A stretch of DNA of 24,690 nt, from the NCBI GenBank assembly GCA_039933075.1, contig JBDTOW010000001.1:1-24690 (forward strand), written 5' to 3'. The position numbers were made by a program, and so were the translations under genes. A model generated the notes under the pieces. The model saw only the letters and a list, made by a program, of their open reading frames with translations. It did not search any database and had not been told where the DNA came from. Source of the stretch: Verrucomicrobiota bacterium (GTDB lineage: Bacteria; Verrucomicrobiota; Verrucomicrobiia; Limisphaerales; JACPZS01). Below, in pieces: positions 1-24,689 of the stretch (positions within the stretch are counted from its first letter, which is position 1; every line of letters begins with the position of its first letter).

Positions 1-2
1 GC

Positions 3-734: not shown

Positions 735-781
735 CTTTCACCATCTCGAGTCGTCTGGCCACTTCAATCAATCGTTGAACC

Positions 782-1696: not shown

Positions 1697-1849
1697 GAGT
1701 CCGCGATCGACGCAAGGTTTAACGTGCAGTTCCAACACCTGCCTGACACCACGAGGTATCAACACCCCACAATTTAGGTCGAAACAATTTCCATGTCACG
1801 CGATAAGGAAGTCCAGGAAGCGCACATTCGAGGCTCATCAATGTTACTT

Positions 1850-4426: not shown

Positions 4427-4560
4427 CGCGCGACGAGTTTTGACTGAATTGACCGAATTAACAGAAGTTTTTTAGCCAAACGATGCGGGCCGGAACTGAG
4501 AAATCTCACCTGGGCAAACGCCCCATAGCGCCGACGCTCTCTCCGGGCTATCTTTACGGC

Positions 4561-5964: not shown

Positions 5965-5991
5965 TGAATGTTTCTCGACCGACGGAAGCAC
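5875..5991 (+). repeat. Diverged direct repeat, copy 1 (3' end of the choice-of-anchor gene plus the following spacer)
   Basis: Hand alignment to 6829-6951 gives anchored blocks of 21/24, 22/28 and 28/32 identical nt. Confidence 0.85.
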
Positions 5992-5995
5992 ACCC

Positions 5996-6793: not shown

Positions 6794-6828
6794 CCGGCGG
6801 CTTGTAGAATTTGAGCCAGCGTTTGAGC

Positions 6829-6951
6829 GCCACCACGGTGACCAATGGCGGGCCGGTTCGAATTCCGAGATCTGAACGCCGTTGATTTCGGTGAGCAGCA
6901 CTTATCGGATAATGACGCCGTGATGGATGTTTCTTTTACCCACTGAAGCAC
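6829..6951 (+). repeat. Diverged direct repeat, copy 2; a frameshifted remnant of an RFYR-domain 3' end (ATTVTNGG / FEFRDLNA / YRIMTP*)
   Basis: Matches 5875-5991 with a 4-nt and a 1-nt insertion. The stop TGA at 6921-6923 is equivalent to the stop at 5962-5964. Confidence 0.85.
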
Positions 6952-7125
6952 GTCAGCGTGTCATACATCTCTTCGTTGCAGTTGGAGTTGGTGGGTGGAA
7001 ATGTTGCAGCGTTTTTTCACCGCGGTTTTTCTCAAACAAAAAACTGGTCAGAAAAAGAATTCTGGTTAAACTCTGCCGACAGAGCAAACAACGCTAACAC
7101 CAAATTGGATCGGAGGTGAACTTCC

Positions 7126-7194
7126 GTGGCCGAAAAAAAGAAAGCAGCAAAGAAACCCGCAATGAAGAAAGCCGCCAAGGGCAAGAAAAAGTAG
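7126..7194 (+). CDS. Small Lys/Ala-rich histone H1-like peptide, 22 aa (MAEKKKAAKKPAMKKAAKGKKK)
   Basis: GTG start at 7126 lies 8 nt after the Shine-Dalgarno GGAGGT (7112-7117); TAG is at 7192-7194. Eleven of 22 residues are Lys. It is below the ORF-track length cutoff. Confidence 0.7.
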   Translation: MAEKKKAAKKPAMKKAAKGKKK

Positions 7195-7218
7195 ACTTCG
7201 TTTTACTTGGCACTCACC

Positions 7219-7265
7219 GCCAGGATAGTAATCCTGGTCCGACAGTTCAGGACTACTATTCTGGC
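7219..7265. other. Long inverted repeat / stem-loop (18-bp arms, 11-nt loop)
   Basis: GCCAGGATAGTAATCCTG (7219-7236) pairs with CAGGACTACTATTCTGGC (7248-7265): 16 Watson-Crick pairs, one G-U pair and one mismatch. The left arm also contains a nested hairpin CCAGGAT-AGTA-ATCCTGG. Confidence 0.7.
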
Positions 7266-7296
7266 TTACTCACGACCGCCTTGATTTGCTTCCGCG

Positions 7297-8013
7297 ATGG
7301 CCACTCTGGTTTTTGACATTGAAACCTCGGCCCTGCCTTTGGAGAACTTTGATGAAGTTCAGCAAGAATACCTTTTTCGTGACGCGGAAAGATTCCCCGA
7401 ACCGACAGCCCGAGATTTGAAGCGGGCGGAGATTCGGCGCCAGTTTAGCCTTTGGCCTTTCACTGCCCACGTCGTTTGCATCGCGATGTTGAATGCCGAC
7501 ACTTCGCGCGGCCAAGTCCTTTTCCTGGCCGATGACTTCGACGACGAAGCCGAAGCCGGTCCGGTTGAATTTGTGTCGTGCGCGGACGAAGTCGAACTTC
7601 TGACTGCCTTCTGGGACGTGGCTAAGCATTACGACAGCATCGTCACGTTCAATGGGCGCGGTTTCGACGTGCCATTTATCTACCTTCGCTCCGCGATCTT
7701 GAACGTCCCAATCAGTCGAAAGGACTGGCTGGGCTATCGTTTTCAAACTGATCCTCACTGCGACTTGGCCGAACAGCTCACCTTCTACGGTGTCAGCGGG
7801 CGCGAAGGGGCCGCACGTCGCTTCAACCTGGATTTTTACTGCAAAGCTTTTCGCATCGAATCTCCCAAAAGCCATGGCGTGACTGGAATGGATGTAAACC
7901 GGCTCTTGGCAGAGGGGAAGCAGCGCGAAATTGCCGAGTACTGTCTTCGCGACGTCCAGGCGACTGTGCTGCTCTACCAGATTTGGAAAGAACGATTGAT
8001 TGGGATAAAGTAA
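7297..8013 (+). CDS. Stand-alone DEDD 3'-5' exonuclease related to the PolB exonuclease domain (RNase H-like fold)
   Basis: Exo I motif LVFDIET, Exo II motif TFNGRGFDVPF and Exo III motif EYCLRDV. Confidence 0.88.
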   Translation: MATLVFDIETSALPLENFDEVQQEYLFRDAERFPEPTARDLKRAEIRRQFSLWPFTAHVVCIAMLNADTSRGQVLFLADDFDDEAEAGPVEFVSCADEVELLTAFWDVAKHYDSIVTFNGRGFDVPFIYLRSAILNVPISRKDWLGYRFQTDPHCDLAEQLTFYGVSGREGAARRFNLDFYCKAFRIESPKSHGVTGMDVNRLLAEGKQREIAEYCLRDVQATVLLYQIWKERLIGIK

Positions 8014-8053
8014 TCGCAGGTCACGAAGCTAACGCTTCTAGACTGGTCGGTTC

Positions 8054-9035
8054 ATGAGCTCCGGAATAAATCGTCAAACGATGTTGATAGTCCTTCTCGC
8101 TGGCAGCGTCGCGGGAATCTTTCTTTTTCCCCACAGGCAGGAGCCTCGGTATGATGGCAAGACAGGGCGGCGATGGCTTACGCAAATCCGGTACGGCCAT
8201 GAGACGGAGGACTCGCAAGTGCAACGAACCACGGTTGCCTTGCGGCAAATGACACCGCAATCGGTGCCTATCCTCATTCGCGAGCTGAGACATCGGGAAC
8301 CGGTGCTGGCTCTTCTATCAGCCAGATACGGATCCCACTTCCCTCCCATCTGGCGCCGCTGGCTTCCGCAAGCGGGCGAAGCACCCGGTCATTCGGGCCG
8401 CCCGCGAAACTCGCCATTCCTGCTCTCACAACAGCCCTGCTGGACGATGCCGAACTCGTTCGCGCCAACGCCGCGGTCGCTCTCGGTCGGATGGGATCTT
8501 TGGCCCATGATGCTGTCTCTCCGCTGGCATCCGTGCTCCGCGAAAGCGAAGCGCAGGTTCGCATCTGTGCCGCCAATGCGTTAGGGAAGGTTGGACCCGA
8601 TGGAAGCAGGGCTGTCACCGGGCTGTCACCTCCCTGGTGGAAAGCTTGAACGATCCTGTTCCCCTGGTCCGAGCGAGCGCTGCCAGGGCCCTGGGAAGGA
8701 TAAATGCGGTGTCGTGGCTGGTAGTTCCTGCCCTAAGCGGAGCGCTGAAGGATTCGGACGAGTTCGTCCGGAGCAGTGCTGTTTCGTCGATCGGAAGATT
8801 TGGCGCGGAGGGAGTGCAAGCGACTCCTGCGTTGGCGAACGCGCTGACCGATCCGAGCTATCCGGTGCGTATTTGTGCTGCCGAAGCGCTCGGGGAGATC
8901 GGTCCACTCTCGAAGCCCGTTCTGCCTGCGCTTATCGAGGCGCAGCGAAATGATCACGCGGGCCTCGGGCGTTTTGTCGCCGCGGCGCTTCAAAAAATCG
9001 AACACCCGCGCGAAGTGGCAGTCGTCGATGAATAA
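8054..9035 (+). pseudogene. Membrane-anchored HEAT (PBS-lyase-type) repeat protein A, frameshifted
   Basis: An N-terminal TM helix and EPRYDGKTGRRWL are in the 8054 frame. The HEAT repeats GPPAKLAIPALTTALLDDAELVRANAAVALGRMG resume in another frame at about 8395-8610. An 11-bp tandem duplication at 8609-8630 then shifts to the 8637-9035 frame (SLNDPVPLVRASAARALG...). Confidence 0.82.
8609..8630 (+). repeat. Perfect 11-bp tandem duplication (GGGCTGTCACC)x2
   Basis: The copies are at 8609-8619 and 8620-8630. Removing one restores ...GSRAVTSLVESLNDP... in frame. Confidence 0.9.
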
Positions 9036-9188
9036 ACGCGCGGACGAGTCCTTTTTTAGTCTTTCACGACCTTCGTTTGCCGGGTCTGCCAGGTTCCTGC
9101 CCGCCTCTCCAAATCCGGAATTGTCAGGCCTGCTGCACCCAAGTTTTTTCTCGCGAATCGAAACGCGATAAACGATCTTAAACCTCGT

Positions 9189-10394
9189 GTGAATAAACGT
9201 TGGATAATCGGGCTGGTGCTGGTGGTCGCATCGTTGGTCACATCGAGACTAGTTGCAAACTGGTTGAAGCCTCAGCCAAGTTATCAGGGTTACTCGGTTT
9301 CGCACTGGCTGAAAAGTCTGAGTTCGACCAATTATCTTGTCCGTGAGCAGGCATTCGAAGCGATTGTCCAGCTTGGACCGGATGCAGCTCTTGCGCTCAC
9401 CCACACCCTAAGAACCAAGCACTCGCGGTATCGAACGGTCTTTTTGCCGCTGCTCCAAAACCAGGCATGGCTCAGACGCGACATTTCTACGGAAGTCCGA
9501 CTCCAAACCCGAGCCGCCAAGGCTCTCGTTGAAATCGGTCCGCCTGCCGTCCCGGCGTTGTTCGAGCTTTTCAAAGACGACGAACGAACCTCCGACCTCG
9601 CCGCGGCTGGTGTTCTGCGGGCAATCGGTCCGGCCATTCTAGCGTCTGTAGTTGAACGCCTGAAGGATCCCGACCGCCGGATTCGAGGGGGGGCTGCGCA
9701 GACGATTTCGAAATTTGGCGGTGAGGCGAAGAACGTGGTTCCGGCGTTGCTCGTGGCGTTGAATGAAGCGGATCCGCGGCTGCGTTGCTACGTGGTGTCC
9801 GCGTTGGCGGAAATCGGCGCCGAAGCGAAGCCGGCCGTGCCGCAGTTGACCAAATTTTTGAATGACGACTTTTACGCCGTGCGTGATGGCGCCATCCGGG
9901 CGCTGGGCGAAATTGGTCCTGAAGCGAAAACGGCAGTGCCCGCACTAGCGTATCTACTTGAGGATCCGGATCAAAACATCCGTTGCACGGCGGCTTTGAC
10001 GTTGGGAAAAATTGGGACTGCAGCTATGCCTGCGGTCCCGAATTTGCGATTGGCGCTTAATGACACGGACAGGAATTTTGCCAGGGACGCAGCGGCGGCG
10101 TTGGCAAAAATTGATCCGCACGCCGAAGACGCGATTGCGCTGTTGACAGACTTTCTCGGCGCGGAGGATCTGGTTTTCCGTTGTCGCACGGCGATGGCTT
10201 TGGGAGAGATCGGTTCGGTAGCAAAAAGTGCGTTACCGGCGTTGATGCGAATGTTAACGAACGTGCCGCCGCAGGACGATCGTTTTGCCTTTGAGGCAAT
10301 CCAGAAGATTGAACCGGAAACTGCGGAGAGGTTTATGGAAGAGTCGATCGCGCGACGGAAACCCGCAGAGAGAATGGCGAAATCGGGGGATTAA
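9189..10394 (+). CDS. Membrane-anchored HEAT-repeat protein B (401 aa)
   Basis: MNKRWIIGLVLVVASLV TM/signal anchor, then QPSYQGYSVSHWL, then about 8 repeats of D.D..VR..A..ALG.IGP.AK.AVPAL. Confidence 0.88.
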   Translation: MNKRWIIGLVLVVASLVTSRLVANWLKPQPSYQGYSVSHWLKSLSSTNYLVREQAFEAIVQLGPDAALALTHTLRTKHSRYRTVFLPLLQNQAWLRRDISTEVRLQTRAAKALVEIGPPAVPALFELFKDDERTSDLAAAGVLRAIGPAILASVVERLKDPDRRIRGGAAQTISKFGGEAKNVVPALLVALNEADPRLRCYVVSALAEIGAEAKPAVPQLTKFLNDDFYAVRDGAIRALGEIGPEAKTAVPALAYLLEDPDQNIRCTAALTLGKIGTAAMPAVPNLRLALNDTDRNFARDAAAALAKIDPHAEDAIALLTDFLGAEDLVFRCRTAMALGEIGSVAKSALPALMRMLTNVPPQDDRFAFEAIQKIEPETAERFMEESIARRKPAERMAKSGD

Positions 10395-10565
10395 CCCTGG
10401 CACCGGGGAACTGCAACTCAGATCCTGATGGTCCGATGGAACAGACTCTACCAGGTTGTGACTCTAGGAGCCATTGAACAATTTCCCGCTTGGCGGCATT
10501 CCGGAGATAGTAGACGCTCGGCCATTCCGTTGACGAGCTCGAGCAAATGGTTGAAGTTGATTCAC

Positions 10566-11753
10566 ATGAGGAAGCTGTCCTTTGCTTTTTTATTCTCTTT
10601 GGTCTTCGCGGTTGGCGGGTTTACCGTAGTTTGGACCCTCAAGTACGTTGAGCCGGTTTATGACGGCAAAACCGCCCTCGGTTGGGCCGCCGACTTGAAT
10701 CGCGCCGACGAAAGTGTGCGGACGCGGGCTTCCGATGCATTGCGAGCAATGGGGCCTACGGCTGTTCGTTCCTTGGTCGCAGGTCTTCGGGAGAAAGATG
10801 TCTTCCCGAAGAAGTTCATTCAAGCTCTGGCGCTTAAACCGCCGGCGGCGATCCGAAGTCGCCTCTATCCGTATTTTAAGCCGGTGGATACTGCCAGCAT
10901 TCGGGCGGGAGCTGCGCGTGGGCTGAGCATTCTCGGTCCCGAGGCTCATGCCGCGATTCCGGCCCTCGGCCACGCGCTGCACGATAATAATCCCGGGGTA
11001 TCGATGAGCGCTGCCGAAGCCTTGGCCCGCATGGGACCGTCTGCTGTGCCGGAATTGATCCAGACCCTTCAGACTGGCGATATCAATGCACGCAACTCCG
11101 CCGCGTATGCGATCGGAGTAATCGGCCCACCCGCAACCAACGCGATCCCGTCGCTCATCCAAACATTGAAGCGCGGGACTACTTACGATGCCCGGCAGGC
11201 CGCTTATGCCCTGGGTAAGATTGGACCCGTCGCGACACCGGGGTTGTTGGGGCTGGTGAAACACCAGGATGGAGCAGTTAGGCGGTTGGCTGCATTTGCG
11301 CTCGGCGTCATAAGTCCGCCTGCAAAACAAGCCATTCCTTCCCTGATAAATGCCCTGGAGGACGACGAGGGGATCGTGCGGCTGCAGGTGGTGGAAAGTC
11401 TCATGGCTATTGGGCCGGGAGACAAGTGGGTAATTAGCGCTCTCGTGGAGCGAATCGGCGATAAAGACGCAAGTGTTCGGTTGGCAGCGGTCCAGGCGCT
11501 CTGCAAAGTCGCTCACGCCGCGAATACGGCAGTCCCTTTGCTGATTAAAACTCTGAAAGACGGACACGCTCCACTGCGTAGCTGGTCGGCAACGCTTTTG
11601 GGTATGATCGGTCCAGCGGCGAAACCAGCGCTTCCGGCATTGAAACAGGCGCTGGAAGATCCTGACGAGAAGGTGCATGCCTGCGTTCGCGAAGCGATGC
11701 AGAAGATCGAATCACGTGCCGACGCTAACGCAGGTGGAGACTCAAAGTTCTGA
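10566..11753 (+). CDS. Membrane-anchored HEAT-repeat protein C
   Basis: The likely start is ATG 10566 (MRKLSFAFLFSLVFAVGGFTVVW); the track starts at 10428. EPVYDGKTALGWA is followed by about 9 HEAT repeats. Confidence 0.88.
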   Translation: MRKLSFAFLFSLVFAVGGFTVVWTLKYVEPVYDGKTALGWAADLNRADESVRTRASDALRAMGPTAVRSLVAGLREKDVFPKKFIQALALKPPAAIRSRLYPYFKPVDTASIRAGAARGLSILGPEAHAAIPALGHALHDNNPGVSMSAAEALARMGPSAVPELIQTLQTGDINARNSAAYAIGVIGPPATNAIPSLIQTLKRGTTYDARQAAYALGKIGPVATPGLLGLVKHQDGAVRRLAAFALGVISPPAKQAIPSLINALEDDEGIVRLQVVESLMAIGPGDKWVISALVERIGDKDASVRLAAVQALCKVAHAANTAVPLLIKTLKDGHAPLRSWSATLLGMIGPAAKPALPALKQALEDPDEKVHACVREAMQKIESRADANAGGDSKF

Positions 11754-11973
11754 GCTCCCCAGTTGCGAGCTCGAGGGGTGGATTTTGCCTTACGCGCCGC
11801 CTTGGCGGACGTGCTTGGTCCGATTTGCTTTGATCTTCATGAACGTCCCAAATTGCCCCATCCTGCCCCGTAACAAGACGGCGCGAGATTCGGGTCGTTT
11901 TCGAATCATCAACTCGCCGTGGTGCTGCGTGTTTTCGACGTGTTGCAGGCGTATCTAGACCAATGCCTGGCGA

Positions 11974-11989
11974 TGGCACTGTCGCTGCT
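11974..11989 (+). promoter_or_regulatory. Putative sigma54 (-24/-12) promoter upstream of the pilin gene
   Basis: TGGCACTGTCGCTGCT matches the consensus TGGCACGNNNNTTGCW with exact GG-N10-GC spacing, about 110 nt upstream of the pilin ATG. Confidence 0.6.
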
Positions 11990-12100
11990 ACAGAAGGCGC
12001 TTGCGGCTTACAGCGGATAATCGGTGGACACTTAATAGTAATCATAGTTAAAAAACCGCTGCATCGTCCACGCCACAAATCACAGGAGAAAACGTTTGTT

Positions 12101-12478
12101 ATGATAAGGAAAGCCAATCGGAAAGCGGGCTTTACATTGATTGAAATCATGATCGTCGTAGCGATCATCGGGTTATTGGCCGCTATCGCAATACCCAACT
12201 TTGTGCGGGCTCGCGAGACAGCACAACTAAACGCAATTGTAAGTAACTTGCGAATCACTGAGGGCGCCAAAGACCAGTGGGCGTTAGAGAACAAAAAGGG
12301 GACCGGTTCTACGCCAGTCGCGAGCGATCTCGCGCCTTACACCAAAAACATTACGTTTCCGGCGACAGGGGTCGTGGGCGAAACCTACAATATCAACGCA
12401 GTTGGTATTCCGGCGACGGCTACCACCCCGGTTAAACTGGGTACATACACCGCCGGAAGCAATGTTACCATCCCCTAG
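12101..12478 (+). CDS. Type IV pilin (PilA-like prepilin, 125 aa)
   Basis: SD AGGAG at 12084-12088 and ATG at 12101. Class III signal MIRKANRKAG|FTLIEIMIVVAIIGLLAAIAIP with G-1, F+1 and E+5. The track's longer start (11963) is unlikely. Confidence 0.95.
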   Translation: MIRKANRKAGFTLIEIMIVVAIIGLLAAIAIPNFVRARETAQLNAIVSNLRITEGAKDQWALENKKGTGSTPVASDLAPYTKNITFPATGVVGETYNINAVGIPATATTPVKLGTYTAGSNVTIP

Positions 12479-12503
12479 CCGGACCCCCGCCACACCACCA
12501 AGC

Positions 12504-12529
12504 AAAAGCCCCGTTAATCGGGGTTTTTT
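12504..12529 (+). terminator. Rho-independent terminator after the pilin gene
   Basis: AAAAG-CCCCG-TTAAT-CGGGG-TTTTTT. Confidence 0.85.
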
Positions 12530-12883
12530 CAGTGTTTTCTCCCGACAAGCTAATCCACGCGGGCAGTAGCAAACAATCCCATTAGCACCGGTTTTTTAGG
12601 ACATCGATCAAATCCTTTGCGGTTTGAGTCAATAGAGTTCGAGGGTTGCCTCACTTACTTCCAAGTATCCGGCGTAAATATTTTGCGTACGCAGCAAAAG
12701 TCGGAACATTTCTGCCATTTCTTCTTGGCCCAGATCGCCAGTGAACTTGCTCGCAGAATACTCCCTCAATGATTCTTTCGATCAAAAAAGGATCTCGAGT
12801 AGCGCAAGTTTATCTCACGTAAGTTGAAGAGACTGAAGAAATTGAATTAGTTTTGCTCACAGCGGCCGAAAATAATGTTCAGC

Positions 12884-12906
12884 AATAGTTTACTAACTGG
12901 TCTAGT
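12884..12906. promoter_or_regulatory. Candidate TetR-family operator 1 (upstream of tetR)
   Basis: Imperfect palindrome with core TTTACTAACTGGTCTA. It is 17/23 identical to the reverse complement of 13592-13614. Confidence 0.55.
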
Positions 12907-12966
12907 TTGATAATTTATCACCATGATTCGGCAAGAGCTGGATCACAAAAACAAAATAATAACGTC

Positions 12967-13574
12967 ATGGGCCGCGTGAGCAATGCCAAAGAGAGACTGA
13001 TGAAAGCTGTCCAGGAGTTGATTTGGACGGGTTCCTACGGCAGTACGACTATTGACCAGATTTGCCAAAAGGCTGGAGTCAAAAAGGGGAGTTTTTACCA
13101 TTTCTTCGACTCAAAGGCGAGCTCGCAGTGACCGCCTTGGACGCCGAATTTAAGAACAAAAGCGCGGAAATGGACTCGCTATTCTCACCGACGGTCCCCC
13201 CGCTAGATCGAATTCGCAACTATTGTGAGTTTGCCTATCGCAAACAGGTTGAAATGAAGAAGCAGTGTGGTTGTGTGCTGGGTTGCCCACTCTTCACTCT
13301 CGGCTCTGAAGTCAGCACTCAAGAGCAGAAGCTGCGATCAAAAATTCAGGAAATCCTGGAATACCACGGGAAGTATTTTGAATCAGCGATTCGTGATGCC
13401 CACTCCACCGGTCTTATTGATGCGCCTGATATCCCTGCGAAGGCGCGGATGATCCGAGCCTATTTCGAAGGCTTGCTAACCCAGGCACGAATCCAAAACG
13501 ACGCCGAAGTGTTGCGTGAAATGGCTAATGGAATCTTCGCAATGCTCGGGGTAAAGGAATCCATCCCCGCATAA
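12967..13574 (+). pseudogene. TetR/AcrR family regulator (NemR/LmrA-like), single -1 frameshift
   Basis: HTH MGRVSNAKERL...TIDQICQKAGVKKGSFYHFFDSKA. One base is missing at about 13119-13120 (aag gcg -ag ctc); the frame then resumes ELAVTALD...GCPLFTLGSE...AMLGVKESIPA*. Confidence 0.9.
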
Positions 13575-13591
13575 GTTTTTTTTACCCTCTT

Positions 13592-13614
13592 ATTTGACTA
13601 GATAGACAACTATT
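13592..13614. promoter_or_regulatory. Candidate TetR-family operator 2 (between tetR and the small ORF)
   Basis: Core TTGACTAGATAGACAA is 12/16 self-complementary and begins with a -35-like TTGACT. It is an inverted match to operator 1. Confidence 0.55.
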
Positions 13615-13625
13615 CACCCAAAAGT

Positions 13626-13949
13626 ATGGAAGACATTTTACAATCGAAAGGGGATCGCGCCGCCACTCCAACTCTCGCAAACGCTTGCCTCACTTCGTGC
13701 CGAAAGCTCATTGCGCAAATCGAGAAGACGAAGGACGGGATCCTCGCACAATTCCGCGAGAAGCTTGAAGCACACGAACACCTGCTTCGCCTCGCGCTAA
13801 ACGAAGCCGAGGCGATCGCCTGGGAGACGGAATTCCCTCATCTCGTCTTCCCAATGCTCGCGACGGAGAAAGCTCAGGACGTAGTCACCTGGTTCGCACG
13901 GCAACGCTCCATCAATCGGCAGGCTTCGGTGCGTACGCCCGTGGGATGA
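13626..13949 (+). CDS. Hypothetical helical protein, 107 aa, inside the efflux operon
   Basis: Intact ORF co-oriented between tetR and the MFP gene, with protein-like composition (LLRLALNEAEAIAWETEFPHLVFPMLA). No family recognised. Confidence 0.7.
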   Translation: MEDILQSKGDRAATPTLANACLTSCRKLIAQIEKTKDGILAQFREKLEAHEHLLRLALNEAEAIAWETEFPHLVFPMLATEKAQDVVTWFARQRSINRQASVRTPVG

Positions 13950-13993
13950 TTCATTCACGTCGATTACCAACCACAACTTCAACTTCGAGAATT

Positions 13994-15171
13994 ATGTCGC
14001 CAAAAACTTTTCTTCACGTGACCTCAGCGACGCTTGGTTTCGTTGCCGCGATCGTCCTGTCAACTGGCTGCAGCCGACACACCACTCAGCAGTCACCGCC
14101 ACCGCCCTCAGTAACAGTGGCATCCAGCGAACAGAAGGAAATCGTTGAGTGGGACGAATTTACCGGCCGGACGGAGCCCGTGCAATCAGTCGAGGTCCGT
14201 CCGCGAGTTTCCGGATACATCCAGGAAGTGCGTTTTCAGTCCGGGCAATTGGTCAAGAAGGGAGACCTGCTTTTCGTCATCGATCCGCGCTGGCACCAGG
14301 CAGAATTCGACCGTCGCCAGGCTGAAGCGGAGCGGGCCAAGGTTCAATTGGAAAATGCCCGGCGAGAAGCCGACCGCACACCTCAACTGCTGGCAAACAA
14401 AGCTCTCTCCACCGAGGAGGCGGATGCGCGCGTAGCCCGGTACCAGGAGGCCAAAGCCGCTTTGCTCGCGGCGGAATCGGTCCGCGACTTTGTGCAGCTT
14501 GATCTCGAACACACAAATGTTCGCGCGCCCATCGCGGGCCGGGTTAGCCGCGCATTCCTGACCGAAGGTAATTACGTCAGCGGGGTCTCAGGCTCAACCA
14601 CATTGCTTACAACGATCGTTTCAGTGGATCCAATCTACGTGCATGCAGACGTTGACGAGGATACGCTCCTGAAGTTTAACGCATTATCGCTCGCCAAAAA
14701 GCTGGAAACCAATGCGGCTGGCAGGATTCCAGTCGAACTGCAACTTGCCGACGAACAAGGCTTCCCGCACCGGGGCCATATGGAGTCGATCGACAACCGT
14801 CTTGATCCCAACACCGGCAGCATTCTCTTGCGCGCCGTGTTTTCAAACAACGACAGCAGCATTGTGCCCGGATTATTTGCGCGTATCCGCGTGCCCTCGA
14901 GCGAACGCCATCCCGCTTTACTCGTGACCGAGCGCGCCATTGGCACCGACCGGCGCAAAAATATGTACTCACGCTAACCGCGTCGAACACCGTTTCGTAT
15001 CAATCGGTGAAGCTCGGTCCGATGATTGACGGCAAGCGGATCGTCTACTCCGGCTTGCAGGGAAGTGAGAAAATAATTGTCAACGGATTACAGCGGGTTC
15101 GTCCGGGAATGATCGTATCGGCCCAAGAAGAAGGGGCGAGCAACGAAGCTGTGGCGGTCGCGAAGCGTTAA
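13994..15171 (+). pseudogene. RND efflux periplasmic adaptor (MFP, AcrA/MexE-like lipoprotein), -1 frameshift near the C-terminus
   Basis: Lipobox-like VLSTGC|S, EWDEFTGR, VEVRPRVSGYI and APIAGRVSR. At about 14951 'gac c-g gcg caa aaa tat' loses one base; the shifted frame continues QKYVLTL...GLQRVRPG... to TAA 15169-15171. Confidence 0.9.
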
Positions 15172-15231
15172 TCGACTCCGCGGAAACCGAGTTCAGGAAT
15201 TTCTCCGCGGCAAATCCAAAGAATTCGATTT

Positions 15232-18200
15232 ATGAACTTTTCAGATTTTTTCATCCGCCGGCCCATCTTCGCCGGAGTGCTCTCGATTGTGGTCTTTCTC
15301 GTCGGTCTGATTGCGATGTGGCGGTTGCCCCATCAGCGAATACCCGGAGGTTGTCCCGCCCACCATCGTCGTGCGCGCGATCTATCCCGGGGCCAACCCA
15401 AAGACCATTGCCGAAACTGTCGCATCACCACTGGAGCAAGCCATCAACGGTGTGGAGGGCTCGCTCTACATGTTTTCGCAGGCAACGAGCGATGGGGTGA
15501 TGACGCTGACCGTGACATTCAAACTTGGCACGGACATTGACAAAGCCCAGGTTCAGGTGCAAAACCGCGTTGCGCAGGCACTCCCGAAAGTGCCGGAGGA
15601 GGTTCGGCGTAGTGGCGTCACGACGACGAAACAATCACCCGATCTTACGATGGTCGTGCATCTATTTTCACCGAATGGCCGCTATGACGAAGTTTACCTC
15701 CGCAACTACGCGACGCTGCAGGTCAAAGACGTGTTGGCGCGCATCCCCGGCGCGGGCGACGTGGAGGCTTTTGGCTCGGGTGATTACGCGATGCGCGTCT
15801 GGCTCAACCCCGACAAGGTCGCCGCCAGAAATCTGACGGCCAGCGACATCGTCACCGCCATCGGCGAGCAGAATGTGCAAGTTGCCGCCGGCGCGATTGG
15901 TCAGCAGCCGATGAGCTGGCCAGTCGATTTCGAGTTGCAGATCAATGCGAAGGGCCGGCTGATTTCCACGGAGGAATTCGGTCAGATCATCATCAAGACC
16001 GGCCCCAACGGCGAAAAGACGCTGCTCAAAGATGTTGCCCGCATTGAACTGAGCGCGGGCAGTTACTCGCTCCGCTCGCTGCTAAATAACAAAACCGCTG
16101 TGGCCTTGCCGATCTTTCAGACACCCGGCGCCAATGCTCTCCAACTTTCCTCTGACGTTCGCCACACGATGGAGGAGTTGAAGAAAAATTTTCCCGACGG
16201 TGTGGATTATTCAGTGGTGTATGACCCGACGGTCTTCGTGCGGCATTCGATTGAAGCCGTGGTTCACACTCTCCTGGAAGCCATCCTCCTGGTCGTCATT
16301 GTCGTCATTGTTTTTCTCCAGACCTGGCGCGCTTCGATTATTCCACTTGCGGCGGTGCCGGTGTCACTCGTGGGCACCTTTGCCGCCATGTTGGCATTCG
16401 GTTTTTCCATCAACAACCTTTCGCTGTTCGGATTGGTGCTAGCCATCGGCATCCTCGTCGATGATGCCATTGTGGTCGTCGAAAACGTCGAGCGCAATAT
16501 TGCGCTGGGCTTGTCGCCCACGGACACGGCCAAACGCGCCATGAGCGAAGTCACGAGTCCGATTATCGCGACAGCGCTGGTGCTTTGTGCGGTGTTCATC
16601 CCGACGGCTTTCATCAGCGGGCTCACCGGCCAATTTTACAAACAGTTTGCCATCACCATAGCCATCTCAACGGTGATCTCGGCATTCAACTCCCCGACGC
16701 TGTCCCCGGCGCTCTGTGCCCTTCTGCTCAAGGACCACAAAGCACCGAAGGATTGGTTCGCGCGGATTATGGAAAAGTCGCTCGGCTGGTTCTTCCATCC
16801 GTTCAACCGGATTTTCGCTTGGGCAAGCAACAAATACTCCGCCGGAGTTGCCACCGTCCTTCGCAAAAGCGCATTGGCATTGGTTGCTTACTGTGGACTC
16901 ACACTTCTCACCGGCTGGAGTTTCAGCAAAGTCCCGGCCGGGTTCGTGCCGGCTCAGGACAAACAATACCTCGTCGCCTTCGCCCAACTGCCCGATGCCT
17001 CGTCGCTGGACCGCACCGAAGCGGTCATCCGTCGCATGTCAGAGATCGGTGCTCACTTTACGTGAATGACTTCAATCGTTTCGGACGCACTTATCAGGTT
17101 ATTGCCCAAGCCGACGCGCAGTTTCGTGACCTCCCCGAAGTCATCACCCGGCTCAAGACCCGCAATGGGAAAGGCCAGATGGTGCCGCTCGGCACTCTGA
17201 TGAAGGTGACAGAAACTCACGGCCCTGACCGGGCGATACGCTATAACGGATATCCCGCGGCGGAAATCAACGGCGCTCCTGCGTCGGGTTTCAGTTCCGG
17301 CCAGGCTGAGGCGTTGATCGCGAAACTCGCCAGCGAAAGCCTGCCCAAAGGCGCCGCCTTCGAATGGACCGACCTGACGTATCAGCGTATCCTTGCCGGC
17401 AATTCGGCAGTATATGTTTATCCGCTCTGCCTCCTGCTCGTGTTCCTCGTGCTCGCCGCCCAATATGAAAGCTTTCGTTTGCCGTTGGCGATCATTCTCA
17501 TCGTGCCGATGTGCCTCCTCTTCGCCATTACCGGCGTATGGCTCAAAGGCAGCGATAACAATATCTTCACCCAAATCGGCCTCATCGTGCTCGTCGGCCT
17601 TGCTTGCAAAAACGCGATTCTCATCGTGGAATTTGCGAAACAAAAACAAGACGAAGGCCTGTCGCCATTTCAGACGGCCATCGCAGCCAGCCGTCTCCGT
17701 TTGCGGCCAATCTTGATGACTTCCATCGCGTTCATCGCGGGCGTTTTCCCGCTGGTGATCGCGCGTGGCGTCGGCGCGGAGATGCGCCAGGCGATGGGCG
17801 TCGCGGTGTTCGCCGGCATGATCGGCGTGACGCTGTTCGGTTTGTTCCTGACACCGGTGTTCTATGTCACGCTGATGAAACTCCGATGGAAGAACAAGAC
17901 TACCCGAGCGACGGAGCCGAAGGGTTCATCGCTCGGCTCGGCGGGAGCAACCGCAGGAGTTGCAGCAGTCGCGTTGCTATTCTCCCCCGTCTCCGCCGAT
18001 GCCGGTCTGCTGACCGTCGGACCTGACTACAAGAAACCGACAAATTCTCTTCCGGAAAACTACAAGGCCTTGCAACTCGGCGCGTGGAAGGAAGGCAGGC
18101 CGCTCGAGAATGTGCCGAAGGGAAATTGGTGGGCAATATTCAGCGACAGTGGCCTGAACGAACTGGAATCGCAGGCAATGAGTGCCAATCAGGAACTGAA

Positions 18201-19418
18201 GGCTGCCGTGGCACGGGTGGATCAAGCGCGAGCTACCGCCCGTGTGGCGCGCAGCGATTTGTTGCCCAGCTTCAACCTCGATCCGAGTTTCAACCGCCAG
18301 CGGTACTCGCCGAATCAGGTGCCCAGCTTTGGTGGCGTGACTGCGAATACATTGCGTGCTCCGCTCGACCTACAGTAAGCTACGAAATTGATCTCTGGGG
18401 CCGGGTTCGGCGCGGATTTCAAAGCGCGCGCGCGGATGCCCAGGCTTCGCTCGCGTCGTTTTACAATGTCCTGCTCAGACTCCAGGGCGATGTCGCGCAA
18501 AACTATTTTGCCCTGCGCGCGCTTGACGCTGAAATCAGCACTGTTGTCGGCACGGTGGGTTTGCGTCAGGAGCAGGTTAGACTTGTGCGCAGCCGCTTTG
18601 AAGGTGGCATAGGCAATGAACTCGACATCGCTCGCGCGGAAACGGAACTCGCAACCACGAAGGCAGAATCCGCCTCGCTCGCCCGGCGCCGCGCCGAACT
18701 CGAGAATGCAGTCGCCATTCTCCTCGGGAGCAATCCCGCTTCGTTTCGGCTGACTGCAACCAGCGCGAACAACTGGAATCCTCAGCCCCCGGTGATCCCG
18801 GCGGGGCTGCCCGCGGATTTGCTCGAACGACGGCCTGATGTGGCGGAAGCAGAGCGCCAGCTTGCCTCGGCCAACGCTCGGATTGGCGTCGCCAAAGCCG
18901 CCTTTTTTCCGGTGCTAACGCTTACGGGTTCGGGAGGCTACGTGAGCGCCGACATTGATACGCTGTTCAAGTGGGATGGCCGCGCGTGGTCAATCGGCCC
19001 GAGTCTCTCGCTGCCGATCTTCGCCGGTGGTCGCAACCGGGCGAATTACAAGCGCTCGCAGGCTTCTTATCAGGAAGCCGTCGCGCAATATCGTCAGCAG
19101 GTCCTCGTCGCCTTCGGTGAAGTGGAAAACAGCCTGTCAGCCATTCGTCATTTGATCAACCAAGCGGCTGCTCAACAGCGCGCTGTCACGAACGCGCGTC
19201 GCGCCGCCGGTCTCGCCACCGACCGTTATCGCTCCGGCATCGTGAGTTACCTCTATGTAGTGGACGCCAGTCGCGACGCGCTTTCGGCCGAGCGCTCGAA
19301 CGCACAGCTTTCCGGTCAACGACTGATTGCCGCCGTTCAACTCATCAAAGCCCTGGGCGGCGGATGGCGGGAAGAGGAACTGTTCGCCCAGGCAAACCGT
19401 TCGGGGGAAAAACCATAG
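15232..19418 (+). pseudogene. HAE1 RND permease (MexF/BpeF-like) fused in frame to a TolC/NodT-family outer-membrane factor; multiple lesions
   Basis: RND motifs FFIRRPIFA, EYPEVVPP, LVDDAIVVVENVER, ACKNAILIVEFA and RLRPILMTS run without a stop into TVGPDY, WW.IF.D..LN.L, YEIDLWGRVRR, LLERRPDV and LIKALGGGW. Lesions: an extra C at 15328-15331, an internal deletion at about 17050 (SEIG|SLYVND) and a net +2 shift at about 18373-18377. Confidence 0.88.
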
Positions 19419-19909
19419 TGAAACAGCTTTCTGAACGTTCGCTCTTGCTGCTACTCGCGGCGGTGCAGTTTACCCACGTCATGGACTTTATGATCATGAT
19501 GCCGCTGGGGCCGCAACTCATGAGGGACTTACACATCGGCCCGGGACGGTTCAGCGCGCTCGTCGCGGCTTACACGATCAGCGCGGGTCTGATTGGCGGG
19601 GAGCGTTCATGAGCCTGGGCGGTTGTGCGCGCGACCTCGCCATGGGAATTGAGGCGAGCATCGGCGGGTGGATCGTAGCCAAACAACCGTCCGGACAAAT
19701 TGACCAACTTTCACCGGCTGGGTTGGATGGCCGTGGCGGCCGGTCTTGTCAGCATCTGGTTGGCGAGCCGGGTGCGAGTCAACGAATCAGGTGCATCGAC
19801 CACAATTCCCGCCAAAACTGATGCCCATGTACTCAACTCATCGACGCACTCGAAAATGGTGAACGCCTTTCCCCTCAATTCTCAATCAGCAACTGACACC
19901 TTAGTATGA
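19418..19909 (+). pseudogene. MFS transporter remnant with most of the gene deleted
   Basis: The GTG start overlaps the OMF stop. The N-terminus LLLLAAVQFTHVMDFMIMMPLGPQLMRDL joins at about 19598 directly to the C-terminal helices GAFMSL...GGWIV...LTNFHRLGWMAV, with another +1 shift at about 19697. Confidence 0.82.
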
Positions 19910-20011: not shown

Positions 20012-21337
20012 TCAGTCCCTCACCGCTGCCGAGACCATTTCCAGCACTCGACGCAGGCCATCGTCTCCGCTGAGGCTGCCTTCGTTAAACGGCGTTCTCG
20101 GGATGGGCTTCCAGTTGTTGCGAGAGCCGTCATAGTCGAATGATTGTGGCAATCCGGTGAGTGCGGGCTCGTACTGGCCGTTGTTACCGCCGAGTTTGTA
20201 GATGACCAGGTCGAGCGACGGCACGATGAAGATGCCGAAGCCGCCCGCGCCCGATTTGTAGAACGCATCATGCGGCGCACCCGCGACGTGGCCGTCCGAG
20301 TTGTTCTCGAACTGCAGGCTGAAGGGGCAATGCGGATTGTAGGGCGAGGGTTTGTTGCACAGCGCCACGTACTCCGCCGGCACGAGTTGCTTGTCCGCCC
20401 ACTTGCCTTGATGCAGCAAGCAATAGCCGAAACGCAGTGCGTCCGTGGCACGCACCGCGATACTCCCGGCGCCGTTCGCGTGAGGCATGGTGAAATCGCT
20501 GCGGTGCAGGCAATAGGCCCATGCGCCCCAGCCCATCGGTTTGGCCAGCCGTTCGTTGATGTAATCCTGCAACTCCATGCTAGTGACATGACGCAGCACA
20601 ATCGAGGCGATGTGCGGCGCGGGCGATGAGTAGGAATAACCCTCGCCCGGCTTCGTCCACAGCGGAACGCGCAGTGATGACAGATCAAGATCGCGAATAT
20701 TTTGTCCCGGCACCGGCTTCAGCGGCGTCACTTTCCCATCCACAATCCCCACCGGCGACTGGCCTTCGCCCCAGTACCCCGCTGTCATGCAGAGCAATTG
20801 GCCCAGTGTGATCCCGGCCTTGCGCGGATCATCAAGCGGGAATGCCTCCGGCAAATATTTTTCCGTGAATACCTTCGTGTCCAAGCCATCCGGAATCTTG
20901 TCGCGAAACTCGCGGAGCATAATGCCGCACGCGATGCTCGTATAAGCCTTGCCGGTGGATGCCATGTCCGGATTCGCGTTCCGATGCGCCCGGCCAAAAT
21001 ATTTCTCGAACACCAGGTACCCATGGCGCACCACCAGCAATCCGCCATTCTGAGTGCACCGTTGCGTGAAATCGAACGCCTGCTCCAGCCGGCGGAGATC
21101 CATGCCGGACGATTCCCGGATTTGCGCGGCATCCTTTAGCGTCCGCCAGCCTCCTTCGCTGTCGGGCGGTGGAAAGTAGTCGGCAGCCTGAACCACTCGG
21201 AGAGCCGTTAGAACCAAAATGACGACCACAAGAGGCGAGATCAATTGATGTGAAGCAAAAAACTCGTCACCGCGCCCAGGACCCGTGGGATTGCCGGCAT
21301 TCCAGAACTTTTCGACTCGAGAGTGAGGTGTATTCAT
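20012..21337 (-). CDS. Secreted serine hydrolase, beta-lactamase class C / penicillin-binding-protein-like family; start uncertain (21244-21391)
   Basis: GGLLVVRHGYLVFEKY, SxxK as ASTGKAY (Ser at 20959-20957), ITLGQLLCMTAG, YSYSS, FYKSGAGG and VPSLDLVI. A hydrophobic signal-like segment LISPLVVVILVLTALRVVQA| is present. Confidence 0.85.
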   Translation of the reverse strand: MNTPHSRVEKFWNAGNPTGPGRGDEFFASHQLISPLVVVILVLTALRVVQAADYFPPPDSEGGWRTLKDAAQIRESSGMDLRRLEQAFDFTQRCTQNGGLLVVRHGYLVFEKYFGRAHRNANPDMASTGKAYTSIACGIMLREFRDKIPDGLDTKVFTEKYLPEAFPLDDPRKAGITLGQLLCMTAGYWGEGQSPVGIVDGKVTPLKPVPGQNIRDLDLSSLRVPLWTKPGEGYSYSSPAPHIASIVLRHVTSMELQDYINERLAKPMGWGAWAYCLHRSDFTMPHANGAGSIAVRATDALRFGYCLLHQGKWADKQLVPAEYVALCNKPSPYNPHCPFSLQFENNSDGHVAGAPHDAFYKSGAGGFGIFIVPSLDLVIYKLGGNNGQYEPALTGLPQSFDYDGSRNNWKPIPRTPFNEGSLSGDDGLRRVLEMVSAAVRD

Positions 21338-21401
21338 TTGCGTTTCTTGAGTTAGCTTCGGCAGGCGCGCGGTGGTTTGTTGACGATCCATGGAAAGAAC
21401 C

Positions 21402-24400
21402 TCAAGGGCGCGCCCCAGCGCGGGCGCGGGCGATGGCGAAGTCCACCAACTCCTGCGAGTGGAAGAAGCCTTCAAAGAAATTGTGGCCCTGGCCTTCGAC
21501 GACGATGAGTTTCACCAGCGACTCCGCGTCCGCCTCTTTGTAGAGACGCACGAACTCGGCGGAGTTCTCTTTCAACGGCACGACCTTGTCTATGTTGCCG
21601 TGGATAATGGCGGCGGGCACATTCGCCCGGGCGAGCACGCCGACTCGCGTGATGGGATTGAATTCCGCCGCTCGCGCGTCGAGTTCGGCGGGCGTTAATC
21701 CGTAGGCGCGCGCGGCGTTGGTCAGGCCCGGATACGTGCGGAAATCGAACACGGGATAAATGCCGATGATACCCGCGACACGGCCTGGATTTGCGATGGC
21801 CCAACTGCTCACCCACAGGCCGCCGCGGCTGCGTCCGAACAGGCACGGCTTCGACGCAAACCCGCGCCGCTCGGTCAGCTCACGGTAAAGCGCGTCGAAC
21901 AGCGCGTGGCTCTTCGGACTGCCGTAAGCCTCGCCCACGTCCACGCCCGCCAGCGCCAGGCCGGCGGCAAGGAACTGCTCGTGCATCCAGCGTTCTGCTT
22001 CGTCAGGATACGCCGGCAGAGTGGGCGCGTAGAAAATCCACGGTTGCGGCGTCGCGCGTCTGGCCTCCGGCGGGAGGAAGACAAACGCGGGCCGGCCCTC
22101 GACGGTGAAGTTTTCACCAGGCAGGACGAGCTTCGACGGCGGGCCGGCAGCGGCGGGCTTAAATTTCGCGGGCGAAGCGGCGCCGAGTTGGTGGATGGTG
22201 TTGTGCATTGTCCGTGTGAAAGGCGGGCCATCGGCCCCGCTCAGGGAGCAGTTGATTTCCATGCACCACGTCGGGTGGAGTTCGGGGATTTCGAGAAAGA
22301 CGGACCGCTTGTCCGCGGCGAGCGTCGCGTTTGTGACGTTCAAGATGCGCTCGTCGATGTGCTTGGAGCCATAGTCAGCACTGCGTTTGAGCGACCAGAC
22401 TTTGACGGCGTAGTTTTGCGGGGCATTGGCTGAGGCGGGATCGAGTGCGTCAGTGAACCTGATCTCAATTCCGTTTGCGCGGGCATGCAAATCAACGGGC
22501 AAGTTTGCCGCCTTCCCCGTGGCGCGGACGCGATAGAAACCGCCATCAGCCTGGCGGTTGCCGGCCCACGCATACATGCCACAGGCGTAGAGGTCACCGT
22601 TCCCGGGATGAAACCGCCCGCGCATGACGCCGGTTGGGAAGTCGGGAATCGGAAGCTGCACAACGCCACCCTGGAGTTGGTCGCCGATTTTTTCGTGCGG
22701 CACGACGAAGATGCGGCCGGTGCCGTAAGAAAGATTGAGAAGCGAACCTTTGAGGGGCCCCCATTTGTCGCTGGTCACCCAGAGCAATTCGCCCGGCGAA
22801 CGGTCCAGGTCATTGGTAATCCAGACCAGTGGTTGCTCCATGTCGGCGTCGGCGTTGCTCTGCGGATGTTCGTAAGCCCACATATTGCCGTAAAAGCGCG
22901 CTGGTAATCGGACCAGGTTGATCCGGTTCTTCGGCGTCCAGTGACCTTCCTGGTCCGTGACGAAGAACGTGCCGTCATCGTTGACGCACACGCCGTTGGC
23001 AGCGCGAAAGCCGTTCGCGAGAATCTCCGTGCGCGCGCCGTCCCTGGTGACCTTGAGCAACGTGCCGTGATGCGGCACAAGCGCTGGCAGTGCGTGGCGA
23101 GCAGATTTGGCGTAGTAGAAGTTGCCCTCGCTGTCGGTCTGCAAACCCATCGCAAATTCATGAAAGTGTTCGGTGACCTGATGGTCGTTGTTGAAGCACT
23201 CGACAAAGTCGATTTCGTCATCGCCATTCAGGTCGCGCAGCCGGGCAATCTGGTCGCGGCAGGTGACGTAGATGGTCTCATCCACTATTTTGACTCCGAG
23301 TGGTTGGAACAATCCGGAGGCGACACGTTTCCAAACAAGTTGTTCGAGGTTTCCATCAATGCCGCTGACGATCCACACGTCGCCATTCCAGGTGCAAATG
23401 GCGGCGCGTTTGCCGTCGCGAAAGTAATCAAAGCCACCAAAGCGCATCCAGGTGTGCCACGGATTCGCGTCGTCGGGCGGGGGCGTGAGTTCATCGACTG
23501 CGAACGGTCCTTTTTCGCTCCCCAGGTTGCCGCGCGTGGCGAGTGGCGGATTCCAACGAGGCGGTCCACCCTTCGTGAGCGTCGTGAGATCCGCGGCCGG
23601 CGACGTCACAAGCGCAAAGGCGGCCAGTGTGGCTGCGTCCACTCCTTGTCTCGGGCTGGCAGTCAGGAGTTTCAGATTGAGCGGCGTCGCAGCGGCCGGG
23701 ATATGAAGGGCATTAAAACCATTCGTCGTGATGAGATTCGCGGCGCTTTGGCCGACTAGCGCGATGGAAATTTCTTCCGGCGCGACCCGCATCACCAGGT
23801 CGCGCGAGGTCTTGCCAATGTTGAGCGTGCGGGAAAAGGCGGTGGCTTCGCCGCTGCGTTCGTACCCGGGCAGCTCCAGGACATGTGCATCGCCAACCGT
23901 ATAGGCGACGACGACTTTGTTACTGTGGAAATAGACCCCTTCCAAATGCGCCCAGTCGCGCGGCAACGGGCCGTACGGTTTGTCATCCCGTCCGTGAAAG
24001 CGCGGATCCGCGAAGCTGCCGGTTTCGGGATTGGCCCAACCCGGCCCGACCGGATTTACGAAAGCTTTCTCCCCCACGATGCTGGCGTGGGTCTGGTGCG
24101 AACCGTCGAACGCGATGCCGCGCCAGTCCACGAACTCGTCGCCGGTCCACGCAGCAGCCAGGCGCATGGTGTCATGGTCATATAACATCCAGACGTGTCC
24201 CTTCGAGACACCGCCCGAGCCATCGTCGAGACGGATAGCGATGCCCTTGTAAACAATGTTGTTCGTCTCGATCTGCAATGTCCAAAAGAGCGCCGGACCG
24301 AAATCCATCCGTAAATATTTCGGGCCTTTTTCGAACTCGAGCATCTCGGCTGTCTTCGCACCGCGGCCGGAGCCTTTCGGCAGGCCGGCGAGATATTCGG

Positions 24401-24689
24401 GAGTTACCTTGAAGTAGGCGGTTGGGTTGTGCGGCTTGACGAACGTCTCGCGAATGTAGTGAATCGCATCATAGCGCTGCTCGGGCGTGAGAAACGTCCA
24501 GGCCGGCATCTGGCCGAGCCCCAGGCTGAGTGTTTTGTAAAGGCTGAGCGGGTCACCGCCGTTCTTGAATGGCTCCTTCCAAAACGGACGCGAGGTAGGT
24601 AGCGATCCAGCTTGCGTAAGATTTCCGTGGCACGTGATACAGATGCTGTTGTAAAGCTGTTCCCCTCGCGCGAGGCTCTCGGGATTCCA
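21402..24689 (-). CDS. Large multidomain protein: c-type cytochrome, DUF6797-like domain, sugar-dehydrogenase-like beta-propeller and C-terminal alpha/beta hydrolase; 5' end outside the window
   Basis: The frame is open upstream of the track's ATG 24509 to the window edge (WNPESLARGEQLYNSICITCHG...GQMP). CxxCH is at 24641-24627 and the candidate axial Met is in QMP. Propeller motifs are GLFQPLGVK and GFRAANG. The hydrolase triad is GRSRGG (Ser 21830-21828), IHGNIDKVVP and GQGHNF. The DUF label is from recall and is not verified. Confidence 0.85.
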   Translation of the reverse strand, partial: WNPESLARGEQLYNSICITCHGNLTQAGSLPTSRPFWKEPFKNGGDPLSLYKTLSLGLGQMPAWTFLTPEQRYDAIHYIRETFVKPHNPTAYFKVTPEYLAGLPKGSGRGAKTAEMLEFEKGPKYLRMDFGPALFWTLQIETNNIVYKGIAIRLDDGSGGVSKGHVWMLYDHDTMRLAAAWTGDEFVDWRGIAFDGSHQTHASIVGEKAFVNPVGPGWANPETGSFADPRFHGRDDKPYGPLPRDWAHLEGVYFHSNKVVVAYTVGDAHVLELPGYERSGEATAFSRTLNIGKTSRDLVMRVAPEEISIALVGQSAANLITTNGFNALHIPAAATPLNLKLLTASPRQGVDAATLAAFALVTSPAADLTTLTKGGPPRWNPPLATRGNLGSEKGPFAVDELTPPPDDANPWHTWMRFGGFDYFRDGKRAAICTWNGDVWIVSGIDGNLEQLVWKRVASGLFQPLGVKIVDETIYVTCRDQIARLRDLNGDDEIDFVECFNNDHQVTEHFHEFAMGLQTDSEGNFYYAKSARHALPALVPHHGTLLKVTRDGARTEILANGFRAANGVCVNDDGTFFVTDQEGHWTPKNRINLVRLPARFYGNMWAYEHPQSNADADMEQPLVWITNDLDRSPGELLWVTSDKWGPLKGSLLNLSYGTGRIFVVPHEKIGDQLQGGVVQLPIPDFPTGVMRGRFHPGNGDLYACGMYAWAGNRQADGGFYRVRATGKAANLPVDLHARANGIEIRFTDALDPASANAPQNYAVKVWSLKRSADYGSKHIDERILNVTNATLAADKRSVFLEIPELHPTWCMEINCSLSGADGPPFTRTMHNTIHQLGAASPAKFKPAAAGPPSKLVLPGENFTVEGRPAFVFLPPEARRATPQPWIFYAPTLPAYPDEAERWMHEQFLAAGLALAGVDVGEAYGSPKSHALFDALYRELTERRGFASKPCLFGRSRGGLWVSSWAIANPGRVAGIIGIYPVFDFRTYPGLTNAARAYGLTPAELDARAAEFNPITRVGVLARANVPAAIIHGNIDKVVPLKENSAEFVRLYKEADAESLVKLIVVEGQGHNFFEGFFHSQELVDFAIARARAGARP

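Follow-up and report, generated by a model that had tools for sequence, protein, structure and literature searches.

Gene content of the efflux locus and the joint between permease and channel

The window analyzed here is the whole of a 24,690-base contig (C1; JBDTOW010000001.1 in assembly GCA_039933075.1) from a Verrucomicrobiota bacterium of the order Limisphaerales, whose genome is a metagenome bin of 919 contigs that is 74% complete. On its forward strand it carries an efflux locus in the order TetR-family regulator (12967..13574), periplasmic adaptor (membrane fusion protein; 13946..15171), remnant of an HAE1-type resistance-nodulation-cell division (RND) permease (15232..17874), and NodT/OprM-type outer membrane factor (OMF; 18004..19418). 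The adaptor ends 60 bases before the start codon of the pump (15232) and is codirectional with it, as is typical of tripartite efflux operons, and the order is the same in G001, a genome of the same family. Textbook tripartite pumps are made of three separate proteins; in this locus, however, the permease runs into the OMF without an intervening stop codon.

A first-pass annotation of the window, made from its letters alone, had proposed that the permease continues in frame into the OMF, and this proved correct. In the open reading frame (ORF) analysis, frame 1 (position modulo 3 equal to 1) is open from 16465 to 18378, and both positions 745 to 1020 of the ACR_tran profile and the start of the OEP domain fall on it in Pfam searches. 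The end of the last transmembrane helix of the permease (TM12; GLFLTPVFYVTL, 17839..17874), where the ACR_tran profile is matched to position 1020 of 1021, is followed in this one frame by a linker of 43 codons (17875-18003) and then by the GLLTVGPDY segment of the OMF (18004-18030). The linker reads from MKLRWKNK (MKLRWKNKTTR...) to SPVSADA. It begins with a basic C-terminal tail of the permease, with six K/R versus one E among its first 16 residues, and a G/S/P-rich spacer (17875..17940), continues with a hydrophobic core (AGATAGVAAVALLF; 17941..17982), and ends in the SPVSADA segment (17983..18003), which bears an A-x-A motif. It lacks Cys at every position.

All three forward frames are free of stop codons over 17879-18010. 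The first-pass annotation had placed this stop-free region between about 17880 and about 18020, an upper bound that is slightly generous, as frame 2, after TGA codons at 17873 and 17876, has its next one at 18011; the first stop of frame 0 near the joint is at 18024. Taken alone, a stop-free run of 130 bases is unremarkable by chance, and the open joint draws its weight from the intact orthologs that share the same in-frame join. We considered and rejected an ATGA-type coupling of two genes: the two TGA codons that overlap the ATG (17873 and 17876) belong to frame 2, and they are not the stop of the pump because TM12 runs in frame 1 up to that ATG. A hidden frameshift at the joint, which the first-pass annotation had also discounted, is ruled out by the DNA alignment to G001, which has no indel over 17652-18371 and hence none at the joint, together with the intact orthologs.

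The fusion in related genomes

The search for relatives covered 301 species genomes of the order (Limisphaerales/Pedosphaerales, soil Verrucomicrobia) with a query of 301 residues spanning the joint. Besides the window's own, 69 genomes (counted from the result table) gave a stop-free match from both sides of the joint, the single-contig (closed) genomes G299 and G149 among them; in all, 42 joints were translated. Single ORFs carrying the fusion measure, from stop to stop, 1564 codons in G001, 1654 in G037, 1536 in G024, 1645 in G017, and 1583 in G014, so that the stop after TM12, the presence of which in close homologs would by the first-pass annotation have refuted the fusion, is absent from them. 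The G001 protein (P0001), of 1553 aa from its first ATG, is complete in both halves. Its RND half scores 1442 bits against RND_permease_1 (cutoff, 1250) and 1161 bits against TIGR00915 (cutoff, 940), with ACR_tran matched over profile positions 1 to 1020, and its OMF half, with two OEP stretches, scores 431 bits against TIGR01845 (outer_NodT; cutoff, 210).

The same architecture was recovered from a collection of 5.8 billion proteins. ACR_tran (PF00873) and OEP (PF02321), the pair of domains for which the first-pass annotation had recommended a search, are both present on all 120 best clusters at 90% identity; most of these are about 1550 aa in length, the shorter ones look truncated, and the contigs encoding them reach 5.9 Mb. 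The few clusters with a name are labeled Verrucomicrobia, Pedosphaera, or Limisphaerales, bearing out the earlier surmise that similar fusions exist in databases for this phylum. In the JGI pipeline the clusters are already labeled with both functions, as "HAE1 family protein/NodT family OMF lipoprotein." Among the top 150 matches at the 50% identity level, at least seven are fused representatives of full length, with 31 to 47% identity. In an AlphaFold2 model of the last 554 residues of P0001, again a check recommended earlier, the fold of the OMF protomer is confident and the linker is of low confidence, with a single short helix where the hydrophobic core lies; the model bears not at all on cleavage.

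Taken together, the join is conserved and normal for one clade of efflux genes, whose members combine a complete HAE1 RND permease and a complete NodT/OprM-type OMF in one ORF of about 1550 codons. We found no description of a natural RND-OMF fusion in the literature searched, the coverage of which was incomplete; the design is present in databases and apparently undescribed.

The linker as a predicted internal signal peptide

The comparison took in 114 distinct linkers from the clade to which the window's copy belongs. GPDY lies 48 to 59 residues from TM12, with 43 to 55 residues between the two halves. The 20 residues after TM12 have a median net charge of +4, and the median of the best Kyte-Doolittle mean over 15 aa is 2.3; the core differs in sequence from linker to linker yet keeps its character, and the spacer is likewise variable. 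In the orthologous region matching 17875-17940, AlphaFold2 gives a coil with pLDDT below 50, while the equivalent of the core is predicted to be helical at low confidence. The most conserved part is the site just before G-x-L-T-V-G-P-D-Y, which takes the form [S/P]-A-x-A: Ala is found at -1 in 113 of the 114 linkers and at -3 in 102, S or P is found at -4 in 105, and -2 is free (K, R, Q, N, T, or H).

The charged n-region, the hydrophobic h-region, and the small residues at -3 and -1 that define a signal peptide are thus all present in the clade linkers. The pattern reads as a type I signal peptide, the n-region of which is at once the cytoplasmic tail of the pump, with a predicted signal peptidase I cut at 18003/18004 in the window on the strength of the conservation. 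The first-pass annotation had interpreted the linker as an internal Sec signal from its basic stretch, hydrophobic core, and A-x-A site; conservation across the linkers supports that interpretation, and release of the OMF by signal peptidase I, also suggested there, emerges from the comparison as the best reading. Genes for S26 signal peptidases are present in both G000 and G001.

A lipobox Cys precedes (V)GPDY in 72 of the 80 nearest standalone OMF representatives. The window lacks this residue, reading SADA-GLLTVGPDY as noted at first pass, and none of the 114 linkers has a lipobox Cys at the site; stray Cys residues lie inside the core in six. By this comparison the missing Cys is a property of the clade and not a lesion. 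The TIGR01845 profile match of the OMF starts at position 11-12. The lipoprotein pathway has not been lost, since the adaptor of the window keeps a lipobox (LSTGC) in translation.

Decay of the window's copy

The intact orthologous locus of G001, with 77% DNA identity, served as the reference for mapping lesions. DNA alignment and tblastn revealed five disabling lesions in the window: single-nucleotide deletions at 13118 and 14952, a single-nucleotide insertion at 15328, a 466-nucleotide (nt) deletion at 17051, and a 5-nt insertion at 18371. The first, seen as a gap at about 13118 in the alignment, frameshifts the regulator, which is 206 aa in intact form in G001 and here is divided into a helix-turn-helix half in the frame spanning 12889-13131 and a TetR_C_13 half in the frame spanning 13056-13574. 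The second, a gap at 14952, frameshifts the adaptor, which is recognizable by its HlyD_D23, Biotin_lipoyl_2, and HlyD_3 domains in Pfam. In the permease, an extra C in a C run near 15328 and the large deletion leave a remnant in three frames, which tblastn with P0001 resolves into 15232-15357 (frame 1), 15329-17083 (frame 2), and 17053-18372 (frame 1). The deletion removes ortholog residues from about 617 to 763, and the ACR_tran profile is covered over positions 1 to 36, 30 to 585, and 745 to 1020, with 585 to 745 deleted, so that the window has no full-length match to the HAE1 profiles (TIGR00915, NF000282, PF00873). The insertion near 18371 brings a TAA into frame within the OMF, which tblastn follows in frame 1 to 18372 and in frame 3 from 18375; with its two pieces joined by an X at the break, this OMF still scores 417 bits against TIGR01845 (cutoff, 210).

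Read evidence came from Logan contigs. The source-like run, a rhizosphere metagenome (X1) that holds 72% of the words of the stretch, has a depth of 3 to 5x, falling to about 2 to 4x over 17687-18041. Its contigs match the window exactly over 15069-15558 and 18042-18415, across the lesions at 15328 and 18371, and another sample from that study (X2) yielded a contig that matches exactly at 16968-17145, across the joint of the deletion at 17051. At the deletion joint (17051), a contig from a different rhizosphere study (X5) that is about 92% identical instead runs on with the sequence present in G001, which shows that the deletion is absent from the pump of some close relatives in nature.

Judged by its sequence, the locus of tetR, adaptor, and RND-OMF is a pseudogene from which nothing functional would be made, and the decay takes in the regulator as well as the structural genes. 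The long flanking genes look intact; among them are a MutS gene whose 858-aa product has all five domains and an ORF exceeding 1035 aa. The polyprotein of about 1500 aa envisaged at first pass is accordingly a matter of the intact orthologs, at 1536 to 1654 aa; the window copy cannot make one because of its five lesions. The window thus contributes a decayed copy only, and the intact orthologs are the better exemplars and worth studying.

A sister clade with a lipobox and unfused relatives

A sister clade of fused genes, separated from the window's clade by a long, fully supported branch in the tree, has a canonical lipobox, L-[TSNG]-G-C, directly before (T/A)VGP(D/N)Y in all 17 of its joints. 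These fusions resemble those of the window's clade in being one ORF, of about 1500 to 1650 codons, with a basic tail and a hydrophobic core directly before VGPDY. They differ in that the retained L-x-G-C implies processing by Lgt and LspA and a lipidated OMF, while the window's clade has A-x-A and three to four extra residues before VGPDY. Since the lipobox clade also keeps its signal inside a fused ORF, an internal cleavable export signal appears to be the common theme, and on the sequence pattern the window's clade has probably swapped the lipoprotein-type signal for one of the type I kind. The tree was built from about 260 columns covering the pump end and the OMF start. It was used for the split between the two clades and for the nesting of two unfused loci described below, and not to count events, because the columns are few and in five unfused rows the halves differ greatly in similarity to the query and may have separate histories.

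The OMF of unfused relatives starts with an ordinary signal peptide, the end of which coincides with that of the fused linker. That of G183, MLKAAIFAASAAAFSIVA|GPLTIGPDY (...SIVA|), is free of Cys, as is the signal peptide of the nearest standalone OMF representative (P0126), while the OMFs of G039 and G016 have a lipobox. The pumps of G039 and G016 end in the same LM(K/N)(L/I)G tail (LMKLGxKKK...) as the fused ORFs, and both loci tentatively nest inside the window's clade in the tree. At the G016 locus (L028, G016:C232; 5558-7179), the pump keeps the spacer and the hydrophobic core after TM12, followed by about 250 codons of unrelated sequence; its OMF lies 822 bases past the matched pump end and has its own lipobox signal peptide (FTGC). 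This arrangement hints at a fused ancestor that underwent fission.

At five or more unfused loci, the pump and the OMF share a reading frame and only one stop codon intervenes (L024 in G022:C83 and L045-L048 in G159, G259, G140, and G183); loss of that stop codon would be a one-step route to fusion. Two fused members of the Cys-free clade, L049 (G095) and L059 (G125), have, 13 residues ahead of the Gly of GPDY, a lipobox-like Cys (VSGC and VLGC); their joints may be intermediates in the switch from a lipoprotein-type to a type I signal.

Proposed processing and alternative explanations

The C terminus of RND permeases is cytoplasmic. On the basis of the above observations, we propose that the basic tail and the hydrophobic core would insert after TM12 in an N-in/C-out orientation as a 13th membrane span, the core taking the OMF domain through the inner membrane. 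Cleavage by signal peptidase I behind the conserved A-x-A would follow, freeing a nonlipidated OMF that starts with G-L-L-T-V-G-P-D-Y for assembly in the outer membrane and leaving the permease with an extra C-terminal helix. A 1:1 stoichiometry of pump and channel as the benefit of such a design is speculation. We assign a probability of roughly 0.7 to the reading of the locus as a pseudogene copy of a fusion that is normal for its clade and bears a Cys-free, Sec-type signal cut by signal peptidase I. A fairly probable extension of it is that this clade of Verrucomicrobia makes pump and channel as one chain that signal peptidase I splits at the internal Cys-free signal, with a 13th helix on the pump, and that several switches between lipoprotein and nonlipoprotein and between fused and split forms have occurred within the order.

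The fusion, its conservation, the signal peptide pattern, the complete halves in the orthologs, and the S26 genes are the observations on which this reading builds. Several points weigh against it. The insertion, the cleavage, and any stoichiometric benefit are what we infer from comparative evidence, the predicted cut site rests on the -3/-1 rule and conservation, and the 114 linkers come from related genomes, so that their counts are not independent. The n-region is unusually long, with about 22 residues from TM12 to the core. As to the pseudogene, contigs support three of the five lesions, the 1-nt deletions at 13118 and 14952 being bridged by no listed contig, and the missing quarter of the 74%-complete genome could hold an intact second copy of the locus.

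The alternative raised at first pass, in which the polyprotein stays uncleaved, the core is a permanent 13th helix, and the OMF remains covalently tethered to the pump across the envelope, draws on the continuous ORF, on a core hydrophobic enough to span a membrane, and on the retention of that core by the G016 permease gene, which has lost the OMF. Its difficulty is geometric. The P of PDY in the ortholog aligns with Pro5 of mature OprM, and only 6 to 7 residues separate the end of the signal from that Pro; the lipidated Cys1 of OprM, four residues before Pro5, sits at the outer membrane. Because 6 to 7 residues are far too few to span the periplasm, and given that a strict A-x-A with a free -2 is the signature of a cleavage site rather than of a helix end and that a removable signal peptide occupies this position in standalone relatives, we regard a permanent tether as quite improbable. 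Somewhat less improbable, though still unlikely, is production of the OMF mainly from the in-frame ATG at 17875 with a long n-region, the read-through fusion being a by-product. In its favor, almost all members of the clade have this Met, and MKLGxKKK looks like an n-region. However, the Met belongs to the pump, as the LM(K/N)(L/I)G tail is also found at the end of the unfused pumps in G039 and G016, where the OMF has its start elsewhere, and the lipobox clade has no Met there (VLRRL...). Moreover, in the absence of a stop codon every ribosome that finishes the pump continues into the OMF. No Shine-Dalgarno-like sequence lies upstream of the ATG, which is uninformative since the other genes examined here are without one too.

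That the join might be an artifact of a draft genome, or a by-product of decay through deletion of a stop codon and lipobox, would be a natural suspicion for a fragmented and incomplete metagenome bin of low depth in which the same locus carries five real lesions. This explanation is already contradicted, and we give it next to no probability: besides the indel-free alignment to G001, 69 other species genomes, closed ones included, have this join in intact form. For X1 no differences from the window are listed at the joint, with no contig among those shown covering 17687-18041.

Relation to known systems

In its order of TetR, adaptor, RND, and OMF, the window locus is like the canonical HAE1 pumps with a lipoprotein OMF, such as MexAB-OprM, MexEF-OprN, and the OqxAB type. 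The RND half scores highest on the RND_permease_1 and OqxB-like models and the OMF half on outer_NodT, and OprM is the best solved relative of the orthologous OMF (E value, 2e-63). The differences from the canonical systems are the absence of both a stop between RND and OMF and the lipobox Cys, and an internal export signal that shares its n-region with the C-terminal tail of the pump. The TolC protein of Escherichia coli is a nonlipoprotein OMF with a type I signal peptide, and the OMF considered here is likewise predicted to be nonlipidated and released by signal peptidase I. In contrast to TolC, which is encoded by a separate gene, it belongs to the NodT/OprM branch, the ortholog scoring 431 bits against TIGR01845 versus 117 against TIGR01844 and 45 against PRK09465.

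The closest parallels in processing come from unrelated proteins. The Bradyrhizobium japonicum FbcH product, a cytochrome b-c1 precursor studied by Thony-Meyer et al. in 1991, is reportedly split at an internal signal peptide, and flavivirus-type polyproteins are cut by the host signal peptidase. The likeness lies in a membrane protein followed by an exported partner in one chain and parted from it at an internal signal sequence, but here the freed partner must go on to the outer membrane. If the proposed processing is correct, a multispan inner membrane protein and an outer membrane barrel can be translated and targeted as a single unit, and the clade would be one of the rare bacterial cases in which signal peptidase processes a polyprotein. 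The sister designs, with a lipobox in one and A-x-A in the other, are a natural experiment on whether lipidation of the OMF matters. These are environmental HAE1-type pumps, and their interest therefore lies in envelope biogenesis and not in the clinic.

Other features of the window

Between tetR and the adaptor lies a small conserved ORF of 107 aa (13626..13949, forward strand) without a Pfam match, which has a 117-aa counterpart at the same place in G001 and may be an unrecognized component or regulator of this pump family. Downstream of the OMF, a weak MFS_1 match below the Pfam cutoff (profile positions 1 to 47 of 347; E value, 8.6e-4) points to an N-terminal remnant of an MFS transporter gene (19448..19609, forward strand), with about 400 bases left before a convergent gene at 20012. 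The corresponding position is occupied in G001 by a thioredoxin gene and in G023 by an unrelated gene. The region from 20012 to 24689, on the reverse strand, codes for a 487-aa protein of the beta-lactamase family, preceded by the ORF of more than 1035 aa, which combines DUF6797 with a C-terminal hydrolase of the prolyl-oligopeptidase type; both are intact, unlike the adjoining efflux locus.

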